IMG/VR virus record: IMGVR_UViG_3300035162_000505
DNA length: 64,000 nt
Source: an uncultured virus (IMG/VR IMGVR_UViG_3300035162_000505)
Taxonomy: Duplodnaviria > Heunggongvirae > Uroviricota > Caudoviricetes
Direction: 5' to 3' (one strand)
The notes beneath the pieces are model-generated. The model was not told the DNA's origin, ran no database searches, and worked only from the letters and a program-made list of their open reading frames with translations. Below are positions 4,533-56,609 of the stretch, one piece after another. The position numbers and the translations under genes are program-made. Numbering within the stretch: position 1 is the first letter of the stretch; every line of letters begins with the position of its first letter.

Positions 4533-4544
4533 GATTGTTTCCTC

Positions 4545-4943
4545 TTAATATCTAATGATTTTGTTTGGCGTCTTGAAGTTCTTCTTACGCATTATTGTTT
4601 TCATCACAACATCAAACTCATCATTACGTTGGTCATACGTAACTGCGACAGGAATGTTCAAGTCTTTCTGAATGTCTTTCACAACAGCTTCAGCACCCGC
4701 TATGCCCTTCAGAGACTTACCCTGCTTTGCATAGATCTTCTTAATGAACTCTGCTAGTTCTTTGAGTGTTATACAAGGGTTGTTACGCTCATCACTCATA
4801 CGATCAGCAAAGTGTCTAGTAAACTTAAAGTCAATATCAAACTTCTTAAACAGTTGATCAACAATCTTTTCGAACTGTTGTATCTGCTTCATGCCTATCA
4901 GGTCACACTGAGCTTCTGTTAAGTGATGTTTGAATGACAGCAT
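4545..4943 (-). CDS. hypothetical protein with capsid-targeting-like N-terminus; weak RelE/DUF4258-like signature
   Basis: Starts MLSFKHHLTE; FTRHFADRM...VVMKTIMR. Confidence 0.55.
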   Translation of the reverse strand: MLSFKHHLTEAQCDLIGMKQIQQFEKIVDQLFKKFDIDFKFTRHFADRMSDERNNPCITLKELAEFIKKIYAKQGKSLKGIAGAEAVVKDIQKDLNIPVAVTYDQRNDEFDVVMKTIMRKKNFKTPNKIIRY

Positions 4944-7822: not shown

Positions 7823-7899
7823 TGGTGGTCTCTACTGGACTCGAACCAGTAACCTACTGCTTAGAAGGCAGTTGCTCTATCCAGTTGAGCTAAGAAACC
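7823..7899 (-). tRNA. tRNA-Arg (anticodon TCT), CCA encoded
   Basis: GGTTTCTTAGCTCAACTGGATAGAGCAACTGCCTTCTAAGCAGTAGGTTACTGGTTCGAGTCCAGTAGAGACCACCA folds as a cloverleaf. Confidence 0.95.
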
Positions 7900-11645: not shown

Positions 11646-11764
11646 TTAGAATCACTTTCTCTTGGTTACATTTTATATTAGCATTTATTTAACTTAATGT
11701 CAAGTAAAAAGATGTGCAGTAAGATGCCATGACTAACCATAAGTCCACTTACTACACTAGGTGA

Positions 11765-43907: not shown

Positions 43908-44549
43908 TCAAGCGGCAATCTTTTCCCTTGCCATTGCCAACCGCTGATATCCAACAAGCCAATCCTCAGGTTGTTGAACTTTCTGGCTGATAGACATTTT
44001 TAAACCTTGCTCCTTAAAACATTTCTTAAGAAACTTAGCGGCACTTGCCCCTATGAACCGACTAGTCAAACGAACTATACACTGTCGAAAGGATACATCG
44101 TGGTGCATATGACCAGCAACGTGAGCCATCTCATGAAGTAGTGTATAAGCATCCATGCCATTCATAGCGCATAGATCAATGTGTCCACGCCAAGCCCTAC
44201 CAGCGGTTCTACCTCTAAAGGGCCGCACGTTAAGAGTAGGTACTTTACAATCAAGTCCACCACATAGTTCTAACCATAACTTGGAATTTACAATACGCTT
44301 CATATACTTCTGCGCTTCTTTGGCATTGTCAAAATCTACAATATCGTATTTAAACTTTGATTGGAACTTCCACTCTGCCTTGTAAGTCTTAGACTTACCA
44401 CTGTCGGTAAAGGCTGTACGCCCTGTTTTAAAGACACGACTTTTACAGTTTATGTATTTTAAATATTTGTTAATAAGATTATCACTCCAATCTTTGGATT
44501 TCAAATCTCTTATAACATCACCTTGGTTTATATGAGATAGATCTATCAT
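43908..44549 (-). CDS. HEXXH metalloprotease-like (SprT-like) protein
   Basis: TLLHEMAH...HHDVSF. Confidence 0.7.
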   Translation of the reverse strand: MIDLSHINQGDVIRDLKSKDWSDNLINKYLKYINCKSRVFKTGRTAFTDSGKSKTYKAEWKFQSKFKYDIVDFDNAKEAQKYMKRIVNSKLWLELCGGLDCKVPTLNVRPFRGRTAGRAWRGHIDLCAMNGMDAYTLLHEMAHVAGHMHHDVSFRQCIVRLTSRFIGASAAKFLKKCFKEQGLKMSISQKVQQPEDWLVGYQRLAMAREKIAA

Positions 44550-46871: not shown

Positions 46872-47243
46872 TTAGAATGCGAATGACATACCGATAGTTG
46901 TGTCACCGAAATCTAGATCTCCATCAGAAGATATCTTACCAAAAAGAGACATACCATCAAAACCTAATGGGTAAGTTCCTTTTACGTCTACACCTTGGAA
47001 CACATCTACAGTTGAACCACCATCAAAACCTAATAGGTCGAAGTTGGATGTTACTGATGTGCCGATTCCCCAAACGCTTGTGCTCACTTTTGGCATTACT
47101 TTTAATGCCCAGATGCCTGAGTCAACGTTCATTGAAGTTTCAACTTCTCCACCAAAGTCTAGTCCCATGCTGGAAGAACCTTCGGCTGAAGCTTGGTTTG
47201 CAACTAGAAGTGCTGTTGCTGTTGCGATTACTGCGAGTTTCAT
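46872..47243 (-). CDS. small outer-membrane beta-barrel/porin-like protein
   Basis: Signal peptide (ASA), amphipathic beta pattern, C-terminal GMSFAF. Confidence 0.65.
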   Translation of the reverse strand: MKLAVIATATALLVANQASAEGSSSMGLDFGGEVETSMNVDSGIWALKVMPKVSTSVWGIGTSVTSNFDLLGFDGGSTVDVFQGVDVKGTYPLGFDGMSLFGKISSDGDLDFGDTTIGMSFAF

Positions 47244-47269
47244 TTATTTTCCTAATATGAAGTTTAAGT

Positions 47270-47650
47270 TAGTGTCACTTTTCTGTTGCTAGGTAAGTGA
47301 CCAACCCCCTTTGTTAGGCCGCTATTGCGGTGTAACCAGATGGTGCAAAGTTATTGTTTGCGTTTAGTAGTTTGACTTATAACGAGGTCAATCGGTAAAC
47401 TCCACTTTCATCTTCACACCTGTCGATCCTATTTCATCCCCATCATAATGACACTTTTTTCCACAGTGAGTACAGTATAATTTTGTTGGCTTCCAGTCTT
47501 CCATAGTCGCAACTGACCACCACCCCTTACAATCAGTGCAAACTAAATGCCATATTATCTCTCTGTTTCGTTCCATAAATGTCCTTATGGTGGAGATGTC
47601 GGGTACCGCCCCCGAGTCCAGTATGTGTCCACGTTGCTTCAACGTTTACA
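47270..47650 (-). ncRNA. ssrA: circularly permuted (two-piece) tmRNA
   Basis: Acceptor piece ends TCGGG-GGCGGTA-CCCGA-CATCTCCACCA at 47588. Coding piece starts GGGGATG at 47441, giving the G3.U70 pair. Tag ORF 47314-47361 reads ANNNFAPSGYTAIAA*. Confidence 0.93.
47388..47576 (-). CDS. 62-aa zinc-ribbon protein starting in the tmRNA intervening segment
   Basis: AAGGA RBS, ATG at 47576, CTDC...CTHC. Confidence 0.65.
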   Translation of the reverse strand: MERNREIIWHLVCTDCKGWWSVATMEDWKPTKLYCTHCGKKCHYDGDEIGSTGVKMKVEFTD

Positions 47651-47656
47651 GATATA

Positions 47657-47685
47657 CTTATATCACAAAAGGGGAGTCTTGTCCA
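47657..47685 (-). promoter_or_regulatory. tmRNA promoter
   Basis: TGGACA-17nt-TATAAG with GACTC in the spacer. Confidence 0.55.
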
Positions 47686-47727
47686 CCCCCCTTTCGCTAA
47701 ATTTTATATTGTGGTAAATATATCACT

Positions 47728-49101: not shown

Positions 49102-50168
49102 GACGGTGGTGTAGCCGTAATGCCTTCGACATAGAAGTCCATTGTGTCAAGTTGCATACGTGTTGCGACTTCACCAACTTCTAAGAATACTGAACCATCT
49201 TGCTTATTGATTGGTCCCGTAAATCCATGTAACGTTCCAGCCGAAATAGCATCCTTTACTATCTGTGCTTCTAATGCTACATTTGCTGGCATATTAGTAA
49301 ACGGTGCCATTTGAACAGCACCCGTATTCATGTGACCAAAGTAATCACCTGTCTTCCATGTGCCATCTAATACTTGACCAACTTTGTCAATATAGTATGG
49401 ACCCCAATTATCAATAGTAGCAGTCAACTGTGCTTTAGGAGCAAACTTAAGTTGATCTGATGCCTGACCAAAACCAACCTTACCAGCCTTTTCAGCGGCA
49501 ATCAGTGGTGCTGGTGAGTCTGTATGCTGTGCTACAACATCACAACCTTGTTCCATCATAGATTTAGCGGCATCACCTTCTTTGGCTGGATCATACCAAG
49601 TATAAACCCACACGATACTTAACTCTACATCAGGGTTCATCTTCTTTGCGCCCAAGTAATATGTGTTAATTTCACGCATAACTTCTGGGATTGGGAAAGA
49701 AGCAACGTAACAAATCTTATTTGTTTTTGTCATCAACCCAGCAATGATACCTTGAACGTGGCGTGATTGATATAACTTCAATCCATAGTTCGCCGCATTC
49801 TCAGACTGCTTGTATCCAGTAGCGTGTTCAAACTTTACGTTAGGAAACTTTTTAGCCACTGATAGAACTGAGTCCATGTAGCCAAAAGAGGTTGCAAAGA
49901 TAATGTCTGCACCTTTAAGAGCCATAGCAGTCATTACACGTTCTGAGTCTGGACCTTCTGGTACGCTCTCAACAAAGACTGTTTCAACTCTGTCTCCATA
50001 AGCTTCTTCAACTTGCTGGCGTCCAATGTCGTGACGGTATGTCCAGCCATGATCTCCTGTGGGTCCAACGTATATAAAGCCAACTTTAACTTTATCCTTT
50101 GCTACTGATGAAGTAGTAAGACCTACCATCAGTAATAGTGCAGTTAGCACTGTTGTAAATAGTTTCAA
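49098..50168 (-). CDS. BMP-family ABC transporter substrate-binding protein (nucleoside/purine type)
   Basis: KVGFIYVGP.GDHGW, TSFGY, FEHATG, IPEV, WYDP, QHTDSPAP, NWGPYY. Confidence 0.9.
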   Translation of the reverse strand: MKLFTTVLTALLLMVGLTTSSVAKDKVKVGFIYVGPTGDHGWTYRHDIGRQQVEEAYGDRVETVFVESVPEGPDSERVMTAMALKGADIIFATSFGYMDSVLSVAKKFPNVKFEHATGYKQSENAANYGLKLYQSRHVQGIIAGLMTKTNKICYVASFPIPEVMREINTYYLGAKKMNPDVELSIVWVYTWYDPAKEGDAAKSMMEQGCDVVAQHTDSPAPLIAAEKAGKVGFGQASDQLKFAPKAQLTATIDNWGPYYIDKVGQVLDGTWKTGDYFGHMNTGAVQMAPFTNMPANVALEAQIVKDAISAGTLHGFTGPINKQDGSVFLEVGEVATRMQLDTMDFYVEGITATPPS

Positions 50169-50410
50169 TTTGTATTCCTTTTCGAGGGTGTTAAGGCAGG
50201 GTCGACTCTGCCGTTTGAGGTTTCTTTTTTGGCGTAGGCTTCCTTGAAGCCTTCTTCATGGACATAGTTTTCAATATTGCCCCATGCTCTTCTTAAATAA
50301 CTATCGTGTGATGATAGTATTTGTTCTTCTGTAGTATCTAGGTGACCTTTGGTTATCCAATATAACCAGTGTGCTCTACGGTGGTTTTCCGCATCCCATT
50401 CTACACTCAT
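50165..50410 (-). CDS. hypothetical protein
   Basis: ORF abutting the BMP gene. Confidence 0.45.
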   Translation of the reverse strand: MSVEWDAENHRRAHWLYWITKGHLDTTEEQILSSHDSYLRRAWGNIENYVHEEGFKEAYAKKETSNGRVDPALTPSKRNTN

Positions 50411-50537
50411 TTTGTTTTTCTTCTTATTTTTTTAAAAGTATTCTGAATACTATATATCACAGATTTTTGAGAGGTTATAATTATTACCATACCATCATCT
50501 CCATAAAGAATATATTTTCTATTCTCTTTTAAGAGTT

Positions 50538-50720
50538 TCACTTCCTAACTTCTTTTCTCGAAGTTCTTTTACCATAACCTAATCTCTTCATTACTTTCTG
50601 TCTTTCATAATAAGACATTTTAGACCATTTAGAAATTTCTTTTCCTGTTCTTCCACACCCTATACAAACCTCAGAAAAAGGATCTATTCTACATATCTGT
50701 ACGCATGGTGTTATATACAT
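50538..50720 (-). CDS. DUF1289 family (predicted Fe-S) protein
   Basis: TPCVQIC...CIGCGRT..EI..W. Confidence 0.85.
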   Translation of the reverse strand: MYITPCVQICRIDPFSEVCIGCGRTGKEISKWSKMSYYERQKVMKRLGYGKRTSRKEVRK

Positions 50721-50926
50721 TAGAAGGGTGGTTGTTCATAATCAAATGTTGGTTTCCACGAATTAGACACACCAGTGCGTAATGCACGTGCGTATTCTGT
50801 TTCTTCTATGGGCCAAACAATATCTGGTTTTGCTGGCATATGTTCTATTGGCATAACACCATTCTTTAACATCCAACACTCTAGTTCAATCGGTATCTCT
50901 TTTATCATCATCGTCCCAAACTCCAT
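50720..50926 (-). CDS. hypothetical protein
   Basis: ORF; C-terminal WKP...EQPPF. Confidence 0.45.
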   Translation of the reverse strand: MEFGTMMIKEIPIELECWMLKNGVMPIEHMPAKPDIVWPIEETEYARALRTGVSNSWKPTFDYEQPPF

Positions 50927-51410
50927 CCCATGTATAAAATAGATGATTTCCTATAACTTTCGATAAGGTCATTTCTTTTGCCCAATAAGGATTCTTAATC
51001 CAGTTGGCATGATAGAATACTGCACCTTTTGTAGGGTCTACTACATTACCTATCAACACGTCTCTTGCTATAACTTGTGCTCTTTTCCAAGCCTTTGTTT
51101 CTTTGGGGGATTGATTTTTTATGAGGTGCGTCCAACTAAACTGTTTTGGCTGATAAACTACTTCGCATATAGTAGAAGGCCACTGAGTATGTTTCACTCG
51201 ATTTATTGTGGTAAAGGCTACTGCGATTTGACCTTCCGCTCTCTCGCCACGACTCTCATGATAAATATTCATGGATAGACATTCATGGTCTTTTGAAACT
51301 AACTCAGGTGGAGCCATCATAGCCGCACCAACTAACGCCATACCTACTATACCCATTGTTATACCACCACTCGCTATATGTATTCCATTTTTTTTGATAA
51401 ATTTATACAC
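50886..51410 (-). CDS. SleB-like cell wall hydrolase (Hydrolase_2)
   Basis: CLSMNIYHESRGE, NRV, QFSW, GAVFYHA, IGNHLFY. Confidence 0.9.
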   Translation of the reverse strand: MYKFIKKNGIHIASGGITMGIVGMALVGAAMMAPPELVSKDHECLSMNIYHESRGERAEGQIAVAFTTINRVKHTQWPSTICEVVYQPKQFSWTHLIKNQSPKETKAWKRAQVIARDVLIGNVVDPTKGAVFYHANWIKNPYWAKEMTLSKVIGNHLFYTWDGVWDDDDKRDTD

Positions 51411-51476
51411 GAATCATTCCTTAATGTTCTATACAAATATACCCCACATTTATCATGATGTCAAGAGCCTTTTTTT

Positions 51477-51484
51477 TATAAATA
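51477..51484 (+). promoter_or_regulatory. T4-type late promoter
   Basis: TATAAATA upstream of 51510. Confidence 0.75.
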
Positions 51485-51509
51485 CTTGTAAATATATAGG
51501 GTTATTGAG

Positions 51510-51941
51510 ATGTCTGATGATGATAATAAAAATTCGTTTGGAGTAGAAATGTCAACTAAAGAATCTAAAAATAAAGGGGGAAGCCTCACGCTTCAACCAG
51601 AAAGTATTTTCGCTCATTTAGATGCAGATGGTGATGGGATTATCACTGATGAAGAAATGGCACGTGCCAAAGAAATAGCAGAGTTTGAACACACTAAGAA
51701 ACGTCATGAAAATGAAGATGCTAAAGAGGATCAGATCAGAGCCATGGCATGGTTTGCGCTCTGGGGAATGCTTCTATACCCCGGACTAATAATGATCACA
51801 TCTCTTTTAAAGATGGAAGGTGCCGCAAAAATAATAGGAGACATTGCTCCTACCTACTTTGTCGCTATTGCTGGTTTGGTGGCGGCGTTCTTTGGAGCAC
51901 AAGCTTACTCTAAAGGTAAAAATGATACTCCAAAAAAATAA
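51510..51941 (+). CDS. EF-hand-containing two-TM membrane protein (holin-like)
   Basis: DADGDGIITDEE; two hydrophobic segments. Confidence 0.6.
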   Translation: MSDDDNKNSFGVEMSTKESKNKGGSLTLQPESIFAHLDADGDGIITDEEMARAKEIAEFEHTKKRHENEDAKEDQIRAMAWFALWGMLLYPGLIMITSLLKMEGAAKIIGDIAPTYFVAIAGLVAAFFGAQAYSKGKNDTPKK

Positions 51942-52175
51942 CTAGGTTCCTAAGATCCTACGAATAGCAATAGGATCATCTGAATATAGATTGCCACCAT
52001 TGTTGATATGCTCAACGATTTGTTCAAAGTAAAACTGTGCGTCACTATCTTCATCAACAACACTTGCGGCTGTGCGGAAGAAGTTGCGTAGTTTCATATC
52101 TGTGTTGCCATCGGGCATAGCCGCTGGTTTCCACTTACCTGATCTTTGATTGCTCATTGCATCAACCTCAACCAT
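51942..52175 (-). CDS. hypothetical protein
   Basis: ORF only. Confidence 0.45.
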   Translation of the reverse strand: MVEVDAMSNQRSGKWKPAAMPDGNTDMKLRNFFRTAASVVDEDSDAQFYFEQIVEHINNGGNLYSDDPIAIRRILGT

Positions 52176-52249
52176 TCATTTATTTCTTTTGCTCTCTTTA
52201 TCCGCAAGTTATATAATGCTTCAGCCATTCCTACACTCCTACTTCTCAT

Positions 52250-52453
52250 TTACTGCAACCTAACTCTAACAACAGTATTAGTACTATTGTCTGTCAAAGT
52301 ATCAACTGTTCTATTAACATTCCTAGCCAAAGACCAGCACTCCCACCAAGACTCTGCTTCAGCCCAAGTATCAACAGTCATACCATTAGTGTGCAGTTCT
52401 GTTGTACTTTCCCAAGTATACTCACTTTGTGTTGAATTTAATGTCCATGACAT
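52250..52453 (-). CDS. hypothetical early protein
   Basis: AAGGAG-TGATTCG-T-ATG behind the promoter 52455-52507. Confidence 0.55.
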   Translation of the reverse strand: MSWTLNSTQSEYTWESTTELHTNGMTVDTWAEAESWWECWSLARNVNRTVDTLTDNSTNTVVRVRLQ

Positions 52454-52559
52454 ACGAATCACTCCTTGTTATTCTTATAGATTAGCACAAGTTTATCTTC
52501 ATGTCAAGAGAAAAAAGGAGAGACCATTTCTGATCCCCCCTTTTAAATTTAGTAGCCTA

Positions 52560-53681
52560 TCAATACTTGTTAATAGGAATAAGCTTATTGCCTTTTATAT
52601 CATGTTTTCCAATGATCTGAGGAACAGCCCCTTTTATAACATACCAGTCTGGTGGTATTTCTGAGGGCGGTACTTTCATTATTGCTTCATACATACGCAT
52701 AATAATCTTATCAAGCCGCCCTTGAAACCCTTTAATGGCTTTAGTAGCATCACCAGAATTATCACTCGTTGTAAACAAAATAATCTCAACAGGATCGTTA
52801 TAATGCTGATTACACATATTAGGTAATATATCCCTTGTAAGACAACGTGCTGGATCATCGGGATAGTCTGCACATACAATCACACGTTTTGCCGCTGTCA
52901 GTTTAATATTAAACTGGTCCGAACAGATTTTTTGCCATGTTTCTCTACTGTGTGTTCTGGTCTGCAAAATATCATTATTATTTTGCATATCTACTTTTTT
53001 CCAGCATTCGTTAATAATTCTCTGAAGCATTCCACCCCTATCAGAAAACACTTTTGGCGCAACAGATACATCTTTAACATAATCACTGATGGCCCGTTGG
53101 GTAGGTTTAAGATCTTTGCTTAATATAAGATCCATCACTTCGTTAACAAAAGTATTTTTGTTCTGTATAGTATGTGGGGGCATTACATTCGCCGCATTAT
53201 AGTATGCTTTTCTTTGTAGAGCGGTTACACCTTCACACCACTCATAAATACCGCAACCAATCCATCTAGTACCTTCAACTGTTTTCTCATCATGGTAAAT
53301 TTTTGCGGAAGCTTCTATACGAATCCTGCCGTTGATTATGTTTTCAGTGCCTATCTCAAGTGCTGGTAAAGGTATTTTATTATTATAATCATATCCGCTA
53401 AGACACAGACTATTCACCATTTCATCAACTTCTTTTTCAGCTTTATCACGCTGTTTCGTGCCTTCTTGTGAAAACTTTTCTGAATCAGGCTTTATGGTTT
53501 TAAGGTCCAACCATTCGTTTCCTAACCATTTGGCAATGACTTTTCCATTTAATGTTAGGTCGTTCTGTTCATGGACTTTGTTTGAGAGATTAATTTCTTT
53601 GCTCTCTGCAGTTTCTATGCAGTATATTTCTCTGATCTTTTTTGTTCTATTTTGTTCTAAGTCTATTATATTTTCAGTCAT
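52560..53681 (-). CDS. hypothetical protein, weak ParB/Srx-like N-terminal motif
   Basis: IINGRIR; promoter at 53766-53794. Confidence 0.45.
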   Translation of the reverse strand: MTENIIDLEQNRTKKIREIYCIETAESKEINLSNKVHEQNDLTLNGKVIAKWLGNEWLDLKTIKPDSEKFSQEGTKQRDKAEKEVDEMVNSLCLSGYDYNNKIPLPALEIGTENIINGRIRIEASAKIYHDEKTVEGTRWIGCGIYEWCEGVTALQRKAYYNAANVMPPHTIQNKNTFVNEVMDLILSKDLKPTQRAISDYVKDVSVAPKVFSDRGGMLQRIINECWKKVDMQNNNDILQTRTHSRETWQKICSDQFNIKLTAAKRVIVCADYPDDPARCLTRDILPNMCNQHYNDPVEIILFTTSDNSGDATKAIKGFQGRLDKIIMRMYEAIMKVPPSEIPPDWYVIKGAVPQIIGKHDIKGNKLIPINKY

Positions 53682-53793
53682 ATCATTTTCTTTCCGTTAA
53701 TTGCCTAGTTGCTTTAACTAAAGAGAGAAGGTTTAGAATCATTCTGTTATCTCTCTTATATGACTATTATATCATAATATACCTTTTAAGTCA

Positions 53794-53945
53794 ACATCAT
53801 CTTTTATGATGTATACTGTTTACTGCTACACACCTATCAACGCTTCCTCTCTCACCTAGCCTTATTGACATTGCTAGTTACGTTTGGTTGCTCCTTGTGT
53901 GTAGTAGTAAACAGTCCTTATAACGAATCACTCTTTGTTACTCTT
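53794..53945 (-). ncRNA. candidate early-expressed small RNA with a 19-bp closing stem
   Basis: Inverted repeat 53815-53833/53897-53915, inner helices, 3' hairpin 53794-53812; promoter 53950-53976; leader lacks RBS and ATG. Confidence 0.6.
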
Positions 53946-53987
53946 ATAGATTAGCACAAGTTTATCTTCAAGTCAAGTGCCTTTTTT

Positions 53988-53995
53988 TATAAATA
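53988..53995 (+). promoter_or_regulatory. T4-type late promoter
   Basis: TATAAATA upstream of 54018. Confidence 0.75.
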
Positions 53996-54017
53996 GTAGT
54001 AATAAAAGGAATAATAA

Positions 54018-54494
54018 ATGATAGATCCATTTACAGCTATCGGTTTAGCCACTTCAGCATTTAAAGGAATCAAATCTGCTATAGATGCTGGGAAAGATCT
54101 GCAAGATATGACTTCCCAACTTGGACAGTGGGGAAAAGCTATAAGTGATTTAGATTTCTCACATAAAAAAGCAGAGAAGCCACCTTGGTGGAAAAAGATG
54201 GGTGGTGGCGTGGAGGCCAATGCCCTTGAAGTGTTCATGCATAAGAAAAAGGCAGACGATATGCGTGAAGAACTCCGGGAATATATATCGCTATATTACG
54301 GACCATCGGCTTGGCGTGAAATCGTGCATACTGAAAAAGAGATGAGGAAGCACCAAAAAGCCACAGTACAAGCCGCTATAGAAAGAAGAGAAGCAATGAT
54401 TAACGCTATAATCATTGGGGCTATAGTTCTGACTGCGATAGGTATGGCATCAGGCGGTATCTGGTATGTCGGATCAGTTAACGGGAAGTGGTAG
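54018..54494 (+). CDS. conserved hypothetical membrane protein
   Basis: MIDPFTAI; C-terminal TM; AAGGA RBS. Confidence 0.65.
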   Translation: MIDPFTAIGLATSAFKGIKSAIDAGKDLQDMTSQLGQWGKAISDLDFSHKKAEKPPWWKKMGGGVEANALEVFMHKKKADDMREELREYISLYYGPSAWREIVHTEKEMRKHQKATVQAAIERREAMINAIIIGAIVLTAIGMASGGIWYVGSVNGKW

Positions 54495-54753
54495 GACGTT
54501 TCGGAGTCATTACTTTTGTCCTATCAGTTCTCTTGTCTATCACATAAGAACCTTCTGGTAACTGCCATGCTTTCATTAAAGCAAGATACATCTCTGAAGT
54601 TAACGTGACAATCTCCCAATAGTTTATACTTTGGTTCCATTGTCTTATGTGGCAGTAATCATCATAGAGTAAGATGTTAACGTCTTCAAGTTCACCTGTG
54701 TTATCTAACAAGGTGATACAAGTCTCATCATCATCAAACTCTATGGTGAACAT
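54478..54753 (-). CDS. conserved hypothetical protein
   Basis: MFTIEFD...IRQW...LPEG. Confidence 0.55.
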   Translation of the reverse strand: MFTIEFDDDETCITLLDNTGELEDVNILLYDDYCHIRQWNQSINYWEIVTLTSEMYLALMKAWQLPEGSYVIDKRTDRTKVMTPKRPTTSR

Positions 54754-55325
54754 TAAGACCTTGCCTCTTCTATAATCTTTCTTTGAGCGGCTAGTTTTGC
54801 TGTTTTATAATCCAACTGGATTGCTGGTGTTTCTTCAACATCACTAGGTTTAAATAAGAATGTAAGATCATCAAAGGGTATATGTGCTTCAATACCATCT
54901 GGCACTCCGACTAGCCAAGGTTGTACCTCTTTAAAGGATATAATAGCAATCGAGTCTTGCTGGCCTATCATATAAAAGTCGGCTGGATTAGATATCTCAA
55001 CACCCTTATTTTTACCAAGACTGTTCTTTAGTTTAACTTTAACTATATTCTTAGGTTGCTTACCTATCTTAGTAAACATACCATCAGCAACATATTTAAA
55101 TTCTAAATCAAAGCCAGTGTTTAAATCAGTATGATCCCTGCCTACCAAATCAACATACTTTAATCTATTATCCGAATAGACTTCTATACTTTGTTCAATG
55201 ATATCACTTTTATCAAATCTGTCTTTAGGCGAATTTAGTTGTGTGCCTAAGTTAAACACTAGACTTGAATAGTCTTTAAAATTAATTGCAGAACGTAGAT
55301 CGTTAGCATATTCTTTAGTATTCAT
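54753..55325 (-). CDS. hypothetical early protein, possible PD-(D/E)xK nuclease
   Basis: GRDH...LEFK; AAGGAG-TGATTCG-T-ATG. Confidence 0.4.
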   Translation of the reverse strand: MNTKEYANDLRSAINFKDYSSLVFNLGTQLNSPKDRFDKSDIIEQSIEVYSDNRLKYVDLVGRDHTDLNTGFDLEFKYVADGMFTKIGKQPKNIVKVKLKNSLGKNKGVEISNPADFYMIGQQDSIAIISFKEVQPWLVGVPDGIEAHIPFDDLTFLFKPSDVEETPAIQLDYKTAKLAAQRKIIEEARS

Positions 55326-55375
55326 ACGAATCACTCCTTCTTATACTTACAGACTAACATATGTTTATCTTTAAG

Positions 55376-55768
55376 TCAAGAACTAAGTATAAACTTTTTT
55401 AAGTACGCTACTGCACATTCAACACCTTCTAGAGTGTCGCCAAATTTACCTAAACCATGATTACACGGTTCGCATATCCATCCCCTAAACTGTAGAGACT
55501 TATGGCAATGATCAACAACTAAGCCCTTTGATGGTATCTCACCACAGCAATCACAAGCAATCGTCTTGAGATGGGCAAAGCGTTCTTTAAAACTTTTCCT
55601 GAGTTTATTTTGTTCTTTTACGCATTCCCTGCATCTATTGTCAAGTCTAGTTTTAAACTGCCTATGATAATTAAATGCTGATGTTGGTTTATCGACAGAG
55701 CATACCTTACATATTTGATAGCCCACTCTACTATCATAATCGCCAGTTTTCAAAAATAATTCATTCAT
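55376..55768 (-). CDS. endonuclease VII-like (HNH) protein
   Basis: CDCCG...LVVDHCH...RGWICEPCNHGLG. Confidence 0.85.
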   Translation of the reverse strand: MNELFLKTGDYDSRVGYQICKVCSVDKPTSAFNYHRQFKTRLDNRCRECVKEQNKLRKSFKERFAHLKTIACDCCGEIPSKGLVVDHCHKSLQFRGWICEPCNHGLGKFGDTLEGVECAVAYLKKFILSS

Positions 55769-55777
55769 ACTTTTATA

Positions 55778-56367: not shown

Positions 56368-56609
56368 AATAAGGTTCTTTCATACATTATATTATCATCT
56401 AGTTTCTTTATCCCCATAGTCCAGTTTTCTGCGGCATCTTCAACATATCTTAGTGCTTTGTTTCTAAATTCTTCAAGGTGAAAATACGCAGATGATTCGG
56501 CCCTATAGTACTTAATATACAACAATTCTTCTTTCATGTCAATATGTACTTCGCAATAATCTCCGTCTGTAGTATCTCCACAGTAGTATGTTGAAAGTTT
56601 TTTGCCCAT
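56364..56609 (-). CDS. conserved hypothetical protein
   Basis: YVEDAAENW. Confidence 0.55.
   Translation of the reverse strand: MGKKLSTYYCGDTTDGDYCEVHIDMKEELLYIKYYRAESSAYFHLEEFRNKALRYVEDAAENWTMGIKKLDDNIMYERTLL

Follow-up and report, generated by a model that had tools for sequence, protein, structure and literature searches.

Within a 64,000-nucleotide (nt) stretch of DNA from an uncultured member of the Caudoviricetes (IMG/VR record IMGVR_UViG_3300035162_000505; "the window" means this whole stretch), we analysed a minus-strand locus at which a copy of a repeated early promoter cassette is not followed by a gene of its own. Downstream of this orphan cassette lie, in the direction of transcription, a 105-nt hairpin, a small hairpin, a second promoter, a gene for a 373-amino-acid (aa) protein, a terminator-like stem-loop and a second, intact cassette that leads into the MSWTL gene (Table 1). 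An earlier reading, made from the sequence alone (the sequence-only reading), took the orphan cassette and the fold behind it for a strong early promoter driving a ~150-nt small RNA (sRNA). The comparisons described here argue that the locus is probably the upstream junction of a cassette-flanked gene insertion.

Table 1. Features at the orphan cassette and in the adjoining insert, in window coordinates
Feature	Position	Strand	Description
Orphan early promoter and ribosome-binding-site cassette	53924..53976	-	-35 TTGACT 53976-53971; -10 TAATCT 53953-53948; AAAGAG 53936-53931; TGATTCG 53930-53924; no start codon
Hairpin module, 105 nt	53815..53919	-	Closing stem 53897-53915 with 53815-53833; weakly paired interior with CTAGC/GCTAG helix and purine-rich internal loops
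Small hairpin ACATCAT-AAAAG-ATGATGT	53794..53812	-	7 bp, -5.8 kcal/mol; lacks a U run; its final base doubles as the first T of the next -35
Second promoter, of the 373-aa gene	53766..53794	-	Near-consensus sigma-70-type: TTGACT, 17 nt, TATAAT with TG; 11/12
Cargo gene, 373-aa ORFan	52560..53681	-	ParB/sulfiredoxin-like N-terminal domain suggested by weak but consistent matches
G/C-rich terminator-like stem-loop	52513..52544	-	14 pairs followed by a T run; lies immediately upstream of the second cassette
Second, intact cassette	52451..52507	-	ATG 52453-52451 of the 67-70-aa MSWTL gene; from the -35 on identical to the single cassette of L003-L006
Inserted segment	52508..53976		1,469 bp; present in the window, absent in L003-L006; -35 to -35 of two cassette copies
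Segment missing in form B	53805..53960		156 nt: -10, leader, whole large stem and first arm of the small hairpin; junction in an A run (ATAAA on both sides)

Judging from its sequence, the orphan cassette plausibly retains a sigma-70-type promoter: the two boxes are separated by a 17-nt spacer, the -10 is TG-extended (TG two bases upstream), an AT-rich stretch precedes the -35, and TAATCT is also the -10 of three gene-driving copies. At its 3' end, AAAGAG stands in place of the ribosome-binding site (RBS) AAGGAG, and TGATTCG is followed by TTAT, where other copies read ATG. The sequence-only reading had described a cassette that kept its promoter and TGATTCG while its RBS was altered and its start codon lost, and this description holds, on the minus strand. 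The leader between the orphan -10 and the hairpin reads ATAAGAGTAACAAAGAGTGATTCGTTAT. No ATG-started open reading frame (ORF) of at least 30 aa was found within 70 nt past the orphan -10. The sole ORF there has 24 codons (53871-53797), and its ATG lies 19 nt after an AAGGAG, which is too far for that motif to act as its Shine-Dalgarno (SD) sequence. Note that the claim that the promoter drives no protein is true for the first ~180 nt only, there being no stop to the transcript ahead of the 373-aa gene.

The cassette is one of a family. A repeat search found a 71-nt repeat in nine copies in the window, together with overlapping families of 8 and 10 copies, and the pattern TTGAC-N17-TA...T...TGATTCG matched the 64-kb window 8 times against 0.03 matches expected, with none of 100 shuffles reaching 8. 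When a looser -35/-10 pattern was used (TTGAC followed by A or T, 16-18 nt, TAnnnT; minus strand), 19 matches were obtained, 15 of which are cassette-type copies. Twelve of the 19 are followed by an ATG 24-31 nt downstream that opens an ORF of 66-280 aa, and the cassette copies at 43911 (TTG) and 51464 (GTG) have alternative starts that were read off the sequence by eye. An SD sequence and a start codon are therefore found at the 3' end of 14 other copies (12 ATG, one TTG, one GTG), and the orphan copy is without them. The matches at 56542, 26125 and 20643, which lack the cassette leader, are probably due to chance; the remaining two are the second promoter at 53794 and the orphan copy itself. 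The copy at 51436-51464 (minus strand) has a variant leader that includes AACATTAAGGAATGATTCG; its protein, of ~171-174 aa, begins with GTG (GTG TAT AAA ...), and its start region is nearer to the CGTTATAAGG of the orphan copy than the usual CGTATG is.

The gene carried between the two cassettes encodes an ORFan, represented by 2 clusters among 5.8 billion proteins and by 31 representatives among 1.84 billion. The protein itself had no Pfam or PHROG match, searches of IMG/VR with it and with P0003 returned no relatives, and tblastn against GenBank phages, a set from which near-identical records may be missing, found no match; a PDB sequence search with the family profile gave an unrelated best match (E 0.019). 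Among 27 members of the family, Pfam matched ParB_N in two (best E 0.0026) and ddrB-ParB in one, none of them the window's protein, and NCBIfam matched Noc in two and SerK in one, these matches having E values of 1e-4 to 3e-3. A predicted model of the protein (pLDDT 78, pTM 0.60) had pNOB8 ParB-N as its top Foldseek match (E 5.3e-3), with chains of ParB, KorB and Noc ranking next. In VIA-align, where a Z under 8 is rated middling, residues ~40-173 matched PadC (Z 7.0; root-mean-square deviation 3.1, 97 residues aligned), KorB (Z 6.9) and sulfiredoxin (Z 6.8). These individually weak, mutually agreeing lines point to a predicted ParB/sulfiredoxin-like N-terminal domain. The leader of the gene (53681-53765, minus strand) contains a hairpin of its own, AAGAGAGA...TCTCTCTT, and a weak GGAAAG SD sequence; it is identical in L060, the only other contig found with this gene.

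Three forms of the locus among relatives

The gene next to the orphan cassette on its other side encodes a 158-aa protein (54018-54494, plus strand), relatives of which occur in 57 IMG/VR loci. The four closest of these loci (L003-L006, 90-95% nt identity) all have what we call form A, with one cassette and no insert. In form A the single cassette lies between the 158-aa gene and the MSWTL gene and directly drives the latter, and homology to the window breaks off exactly where the cassette ends, at 53923; L006, for instance, aligns to 49551-52508 and 53923-54753 of the window with nothing between. Compared to form A, the MSWTL gene and its identical cassette (52507-52451) are displaced in the window by 1,469 bp. 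The upstream cassette copy retains the upstream flank of form A and the downstream copy is the form A cassette from the -35 on, which is what is expected from a crossover inside the cassette.

Form B is found in L060, which encodes the 373-aa protein (97% aa identity) in the same gene order. Here, the first 15-16 nt of the orphan cassette run straight into the loop of the small hairpin, so that the 156 nt between are missing; the flanks of this gap are 97-99% identical to the window. Contigs of four public sequencing runs were also aligned to 52300-54600 of the window (X1 and X2, both brine metagenomes; X3; and X20, an RNA library, that is, a metatranscriptome), and the same 156-nt skip was seen in a 2,388-nt contig of run X3, which comes from a different study. 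Because the junction lies in an A run and the start of the cassette remains, a deletion from the form present in the window (form C) would be more parsimonious than an insertion. Moreover, the existence of forms that keep the 373-aa gene without these 156 nt argues that the -10, the leader and the hairpin are dispensable. The three forms make up a natural series of three states, in which the insert is absent, present, or present with a trimmed junction.

A further difference was found nearby. Positions 54754-55774 (1,021 bp) are absent from L006, in which their flanks are contiguous, and are replaced in L005 by ~1.3 kb of unmatched sequence. Within this segment lie another cassette of the TTGACT type (55379) and the genes for a 193-aa ORFan and for an endonuclease VII-family protein of 130 aa (Pfam E 3e-13). 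The early region around the locus is thus a hot spot of gene turnover.

The hairpin and its copies elsewhere

The large closing stem that the sequence-only reading had described was recovered both by an inverted-repeat search and by RNA folding. Its arms of 19 nt form 18 of 19 pairs (95% complementary) and lie 63 nt apart, and an inverted repeat of such quality occurs once in the 64-kb window and in none of 30 first-order Markov simulations. A 156-nt RNA of the region has a minimum free energy of -42.3 kcal/mol, compared to a mean of -26.5 for shuffled sequences (z -4.77; none of 200 shuffles as good). With this fold and no credible ORF, the region past the cassette is, as had been proposed, non-coding and strongly folded. 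As regards the inner helices of the earlier description, CTAGC/GCTAG is present in the minimum-free-energy (MFE) structure, whereas AACG/CGTT is possible but falls outside it. The purine-rich internal loops hold AAGGAG and GAGAGAGGAAG, and in the MFE structure every GGA motif is located in an internal loop or a stem, none of them in a hairpin loop. The ACATCAT/ATGATGT hairpin is likewise real. Both ends of the large hairpin have TATA next to them in the window.

The hairpin recurs in other contexts. Positions 53815-53919, a stretch that coincides exactly with the hairpin, were covered by short unitigs (49-90 nt, 1-4 mismatches) matching within these limits. The summed depth over the hairpin was 323 in X1, compared to 12.8 over the flanks (~25-fold), and 7,018 in X2, compared to 19 (~365-fold), whereas X3 had no excess (9.0 versus 8.4); high-depth unitigs with unlike flanks were thus present in two of the three DNA runs. 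A 699-nt contig of X3 matches 53823-53919 with 4 mismatches and then continues as other sequence. Beyond the limits of the hairpin the other contigs run into sequence unlike the window, in at least three different ways past 53815 and in two past 53919. On the 5' side of the RNA the other copies have a GTAACAA-type leader, as in the cassettes, and on the 3' side a purine-rich RBS with an ATG 6 nt further on, in two different continuations (one in an X20 contig and one in an X3 contig). The X20 contig, which is 90 nt long and joins hairpin and RBS, comes from a run that covers 5 of 30 bins with two short contigs; its origin in an RNA library is not proof of transcription and says nothing either way on the window's copy.

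Loose ends of other copies at 53828 and 53901 show arms that differ from those of the window and resemble each other, while the inner part, 53828-53901, is shared. Pairing of the arms may therefore be kept while the interior stays constant, a hint of covariation drawn from 10-55 letters per end in different runs. Unitigs of other copies end at 53869, start at 53871, or span 53840-53899 with one mismatch; these contig limits suggest that 53870, the middle base of the internal ATG (53871-53869), is variable and that the start of the 24-codon ORF is not conserved.

Searches of sequence collections returned no further copy. An exact search for a 20-mer of one arm in IMG/VR gave 0 matches, as did two inner 21-mers in IMG/VR and in the GTDB representative genomes (0 in all four scans). 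A gapped pattern of the stem ends gave 3 matches, all in unrelated coding or other sequence, and a gapped pattern of the two purine motifs gave 9, all unrelated and coding-like. No match was found in the same set of GenBank phages by blastn with 1,001 nt or with the 125-nt hairpin query, nor in plasmids and Escherichia coli genomes, so by these searches the hairpin is not a vector or E. coli contaminant. In the full records of five relatives BLAST found only a 14-nt chance match (E 0.09), and blastn-short against the window and 73 loci (347 kb) found only the hairpin itself. Two short loose-end motifs occurred in the window only in an ordinary RBS context (4539-4553). In Rfam, the whole window at the gathering score gave only transfer-messenger RNA (tmRNA; two overlapping families) and tRNA, with nothing at the hairpin, and 53600-54100 at E values up to 10 gave three unrelated chance-level matches (E at least 1.7).

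Taken together, these results indicate that the hairpin is a bounded, reused module that, in other and more abundant genomes, lies immediately ahead of the RBS and start codon of different genes; it appears to be far commoner elsewhere than in this phage, and it has no match in Rfam or in the collections searched. The window's copy, which follows the RBS position of a cassette and precedes a promoter, looks like a displaced or truncated one. A parS-like site of the ParB-like cargo was considered as a role for the hairpin; form B keeps the gene without the repeat, which makes the hairpin an unlikely binding site. An integron attC site was considered as well and was dropped, the ends of the hairpin appearing to be a poor fit to the core-site consensus.

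Proposed origin of the locus

The arrangement resembles the promoter-early stem-loops (PeSLs) of T4-type phages. In the parts of Arbiol et al. 2010 (PMC2839356) and Comeau et al. 2014 (PMC4122927) that were available, a PeSL combines an early promoter of sigma-70-like type with an AT-rich part, a stem-loop, an SD sequence and an ATG (PMC2839356); where RB49 has an ORFan with a PeSL on either side, phi1 has a single PeSL in its place (PMC2839356); mapping put the crossovers between the -10 and the ATG or SD, and mini-circles arising by excision were detected too (PMC2839356); and PeSL shuffling extends to other T4-like phages, in which a flanking PeSL can later be deleted (PMC4122927). Like PeSLs, the cassettes of the window are repeated units of ~70-100 bp with an early promoter, an AT-rich upstream part and a 3' SD sequence and ATG, and they are concentrated in ORFan-rich regions. 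As with PeSLs, an ORFan lies between two cassettes where a sibling has one, the crossover falls inside the cassette, and the ORFan brings its own terminator-like G/C stem-loop. PeSL-type insertion or deletion of ORFans between close phages is borne out by the 1,469-bp segment and by 54754-55774. The window also carries T4-type replication and recombination genes (a UvsX-like recombinase, a DnaB-like helicase, a ribonucleotide reductase and endonuclease VII), and it contains no structural genes.

We therefore favour, at a probability of roughly 60%, the interpretation that a gene insertion flanked by cassettes, in the hyperplastic early region of what appears to be a marine T4-like phage, has its upstream junction at this locus. 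According to this interpretation, homologous recombination between repeated promoter cassettes, perhaps via a circular intermediate as in the PeSL model, would have placed the ORFan module or could remove it. The promoter at the junction would still fire early, and its transcript would consist of ~180 nt of untranslated, hairpin-containing leader and would run on through the second promoter into the 373-aa gene. The orphan promoter would then be at most a second, upstream promoter of that gene. The junction itself would be only weakly constrained and would have been trimmed in some lineages, in which the 156 nt may have been lost by deletion at the A run. Read in this way, the locus adds one more case to a known kind of phage genome plasticity. 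It extends PeSL-like shuffling to uncultured marine and apparently T4-like phages, beyond the enterobacterial and Vibrio phages dealt with in the available parts of PMC2839356 and PMC4122927, and it implies that a strong promoter without a gene may, in genomes of this kind, mark a site of recombination and is not necessarily that of an sRNA gene.

Several observations weigh against this interpretation. Only two of the 16 promoters that were tested have a strong upstream stem-loop: one directly upstream at 52507 (-18.9 kcal/mol; also found by the terminator scan), and one at 11703 (-16.4 kcal/mol), ~10 nt before the -35. The other 14 have weak folds of 0 to -12.7 kcal/mol within 60 nt upstream, so the fit to the PeSL definition is incomplete. 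The hairpin is far better than chance, recurs at high depth in other contexts and may well have a function of its own; a stable, recurrent hairpin with a conserved interior and seemingly co-varied arms is unexpected for a pure scar. Form C rests on the window and on contigs identical to it up to 53844, no contig of X1 or X2 crossing 53845-53996, and the direction of the events (insertion or excision of the module; deletion or acquisition of the 156 nt) is argued from parsimony. Unlike the PeSLs in the available parts of PMC2839356 and PMC4122927, the junction copy has lost its RBS and ATG, and behind it come a 105-nt hairpin and a second promoter; the phage, too, belongs to a marine, Melnitz/pelagimyophage-like group rather than to those infecting enterobacteria or Vibrio. 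Morons offer a further comparison. Like them, the insert has cargo with its own consensus promoter and a terminator-like stem-loop, placed between genes that are adjacent in relatives; but it is bounded by two copies of a repeated cassette, whereas moron insertion is thought, in the part of PMC2839356 available, to be independent of conserved flanking repeats.

Two other explanations take the sequence past the orphan cassette for a product, present or past, of its promoter. The sequence-only reading favoured a stand-alone, immediate-early, trans-acting sRNA acting as a 6S-like decoy of RNA polymerase, a GGA-presenting sponge or an antitoxin mimic. The plausibly strong promoter, the very stable fold, the purine-rich internal loops with AAGGAG and GAGAGAGGAAG and the lack of a credible ORF inside are all consistent with such an RNA, and a long closing stem, an open purine-rich interior and GGA motifs are shared with 6S RNA and CsrB/RsmZ. 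Unlike these, however, the hairpin matches neither 6S, CsrB/RsmZ nor any other Rfam family; its GGA motifs avoid the hairpin loops; and, whereas 6S RNA has ~180 nt, the folded part here has 105. A terminator at the 3' end was likewise absent: the terminator scan found none at 53790-53815, where the small hairpin lacks a U run and overlaps the next -35. A processing site at the 3' end of the RNA is conceivable; without a terminator, a transcript from the orphan promoter should continue into the 373-aa gene. Nor is the stem conserved at the locus, since all four of the nearest relatives lack the segment and both data sets with the 373-aa gene (L060 and the X3 contig) have it deleted, and copies of the hairpin elsewhere precede an RBS and an ATG, so that there it forms a 5' leader rather than an RNA on its own. 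A discrete, conserved sRNA gene of ~150 nt is thus quite improbable, and the orphan promoter and hairpin are most likely not a dedicated sRNA gene but a leftover of recombination. Still harder to sustain is the idea that a small early gene, once driven by the cassette, has decayed into the 130 nt that follow it. It would fit the otherwise complete cassette, the end of which (CGT TAT AA) is like the CGTATG type and the CGTGTATAA (GTG-start) type at 51464. However, every frame has a stop within 15-24 codons, a decayed ORF would not be expected to contain a near-perfect 19-bp inverted repeat, the same 105 nt are found elsewhere as a bounded unit, and the relatives' loci compared hold neither a similar sequence nor, as far as was found, an intact homologous ORF.

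The remaining explanations turn on the recurrence of the hairpin. It is a tentative possibility that the hairpin is a functional, cis-acting 5'-leader element before several early genes, serving as a site of RNase III processing or stability or in translational control; RNase III cuts uninterrupted runs of 18-20 bp. The two continuations into RBS and ATG, the cassette-like GTAACAA-type leader on the 5' side, the shared inner part with arms that change alike and the 90-nt metatranscriptome contig that links hairpin and RBS all argue in this direction, and the window's copy could then either still serve transcripts that reach the 373-aa gene from the upstream promoter (P1) or be truncated, equally tentative suggestions that are compatible with a junction. 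Against it, the other copies are seen as fragments of 10-55 letters from which covariation is not established, a contig from an RNA library is no proof of transcription, form B lives without the element, and the window's copy precedes a promoter and not an RBS. Alternatively, the hairpin could be a small palindromic mobile DNA element that belongs to abundant marine phages and landed in the leader of the cassette, similar to miniature transposable elements with inverted repeats (MITEs) such as the Correia elements of Neisseria. Correia elements and bacterial MITEs are non-coding, ~100-150 bp long, bounded by terminal inverted repeats and present in many contexts, where they are transcribed as leader hairpins, and the hairpin shares their size, inverted repeats, lack of coding capacity (apart from the 24-codon ORF without an RBS) and variety of contexts. 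Its sharp limits at 53815 and 53919 with unlike sequence beyond, its depth of 25 times (X1) and 365 times (X2) that of the flanking phage sequence, its position after the RBS in the window and before the RBS elsewhere, and the TATA at both ends in the window also fit. Such an element is nonetheless unlikely. No second copy was found in the 64-kb window or the 73 loci, nor any in IMG/VR, GTDB representative genomes, GenBank phages or plasmids; no TATA or TA duplication is present in the visible letters of the other contexts; no transposase is known for the hairpin; and, unlike in MITEs, its interior rather than its ends seems best conserved. A combination of these ideas, in which the hairpin belongs to a hitherto undescribed family of highly abundant structured elements of marine T4-like phages, be they new cis-regulatory leader RNAs located between early promoters and RBSs or Correia-like palindromic mobile elements spreading among the early leaders of phages, and in which the window's promoter expresses a free copy, we regard as doubtful.

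Other features of the window

A permuted (two-piece) tmRNA gene lies at 47223-47689 (minus strand; Rfam tmRNA_permuted 111 bits, alpha_tmRNA 99.5 bits); the tag peptide according to ARAGORN is ANNNFAPSGYTAIAA. In the available part of PMC9004378, marine Melnitz-like and pelagimyophage genomes are reported to have tmRNAs of this two-piece kind. No glutamine riboswitch was found at the Rfam gathering score anywhere in the window. The 158-aa protein that adjoins the orphan cassette belongs to PHROG 32327, of unknown function, and has a C-terminal hydrophobic helix. Its relatives include proteins of complete 48-58-kb genomes with terminal repeats (G002, G004 and G005), and the protein is thus common to this large, apparently T4-like phage and to much smaller phages. 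A 143-aa protein (51510-51941, plus strand), which is conserved in L006 and L060, has a hydrophobic C-terminal half and weakly matches the EF-hand in Pfam, at a level that falls short of the cut-off (E 4.5e-4). A tRNA-Arg gene (anticodon TCT) is located at 7823-7899 on the minus strand (70.6 bits in Rfam).

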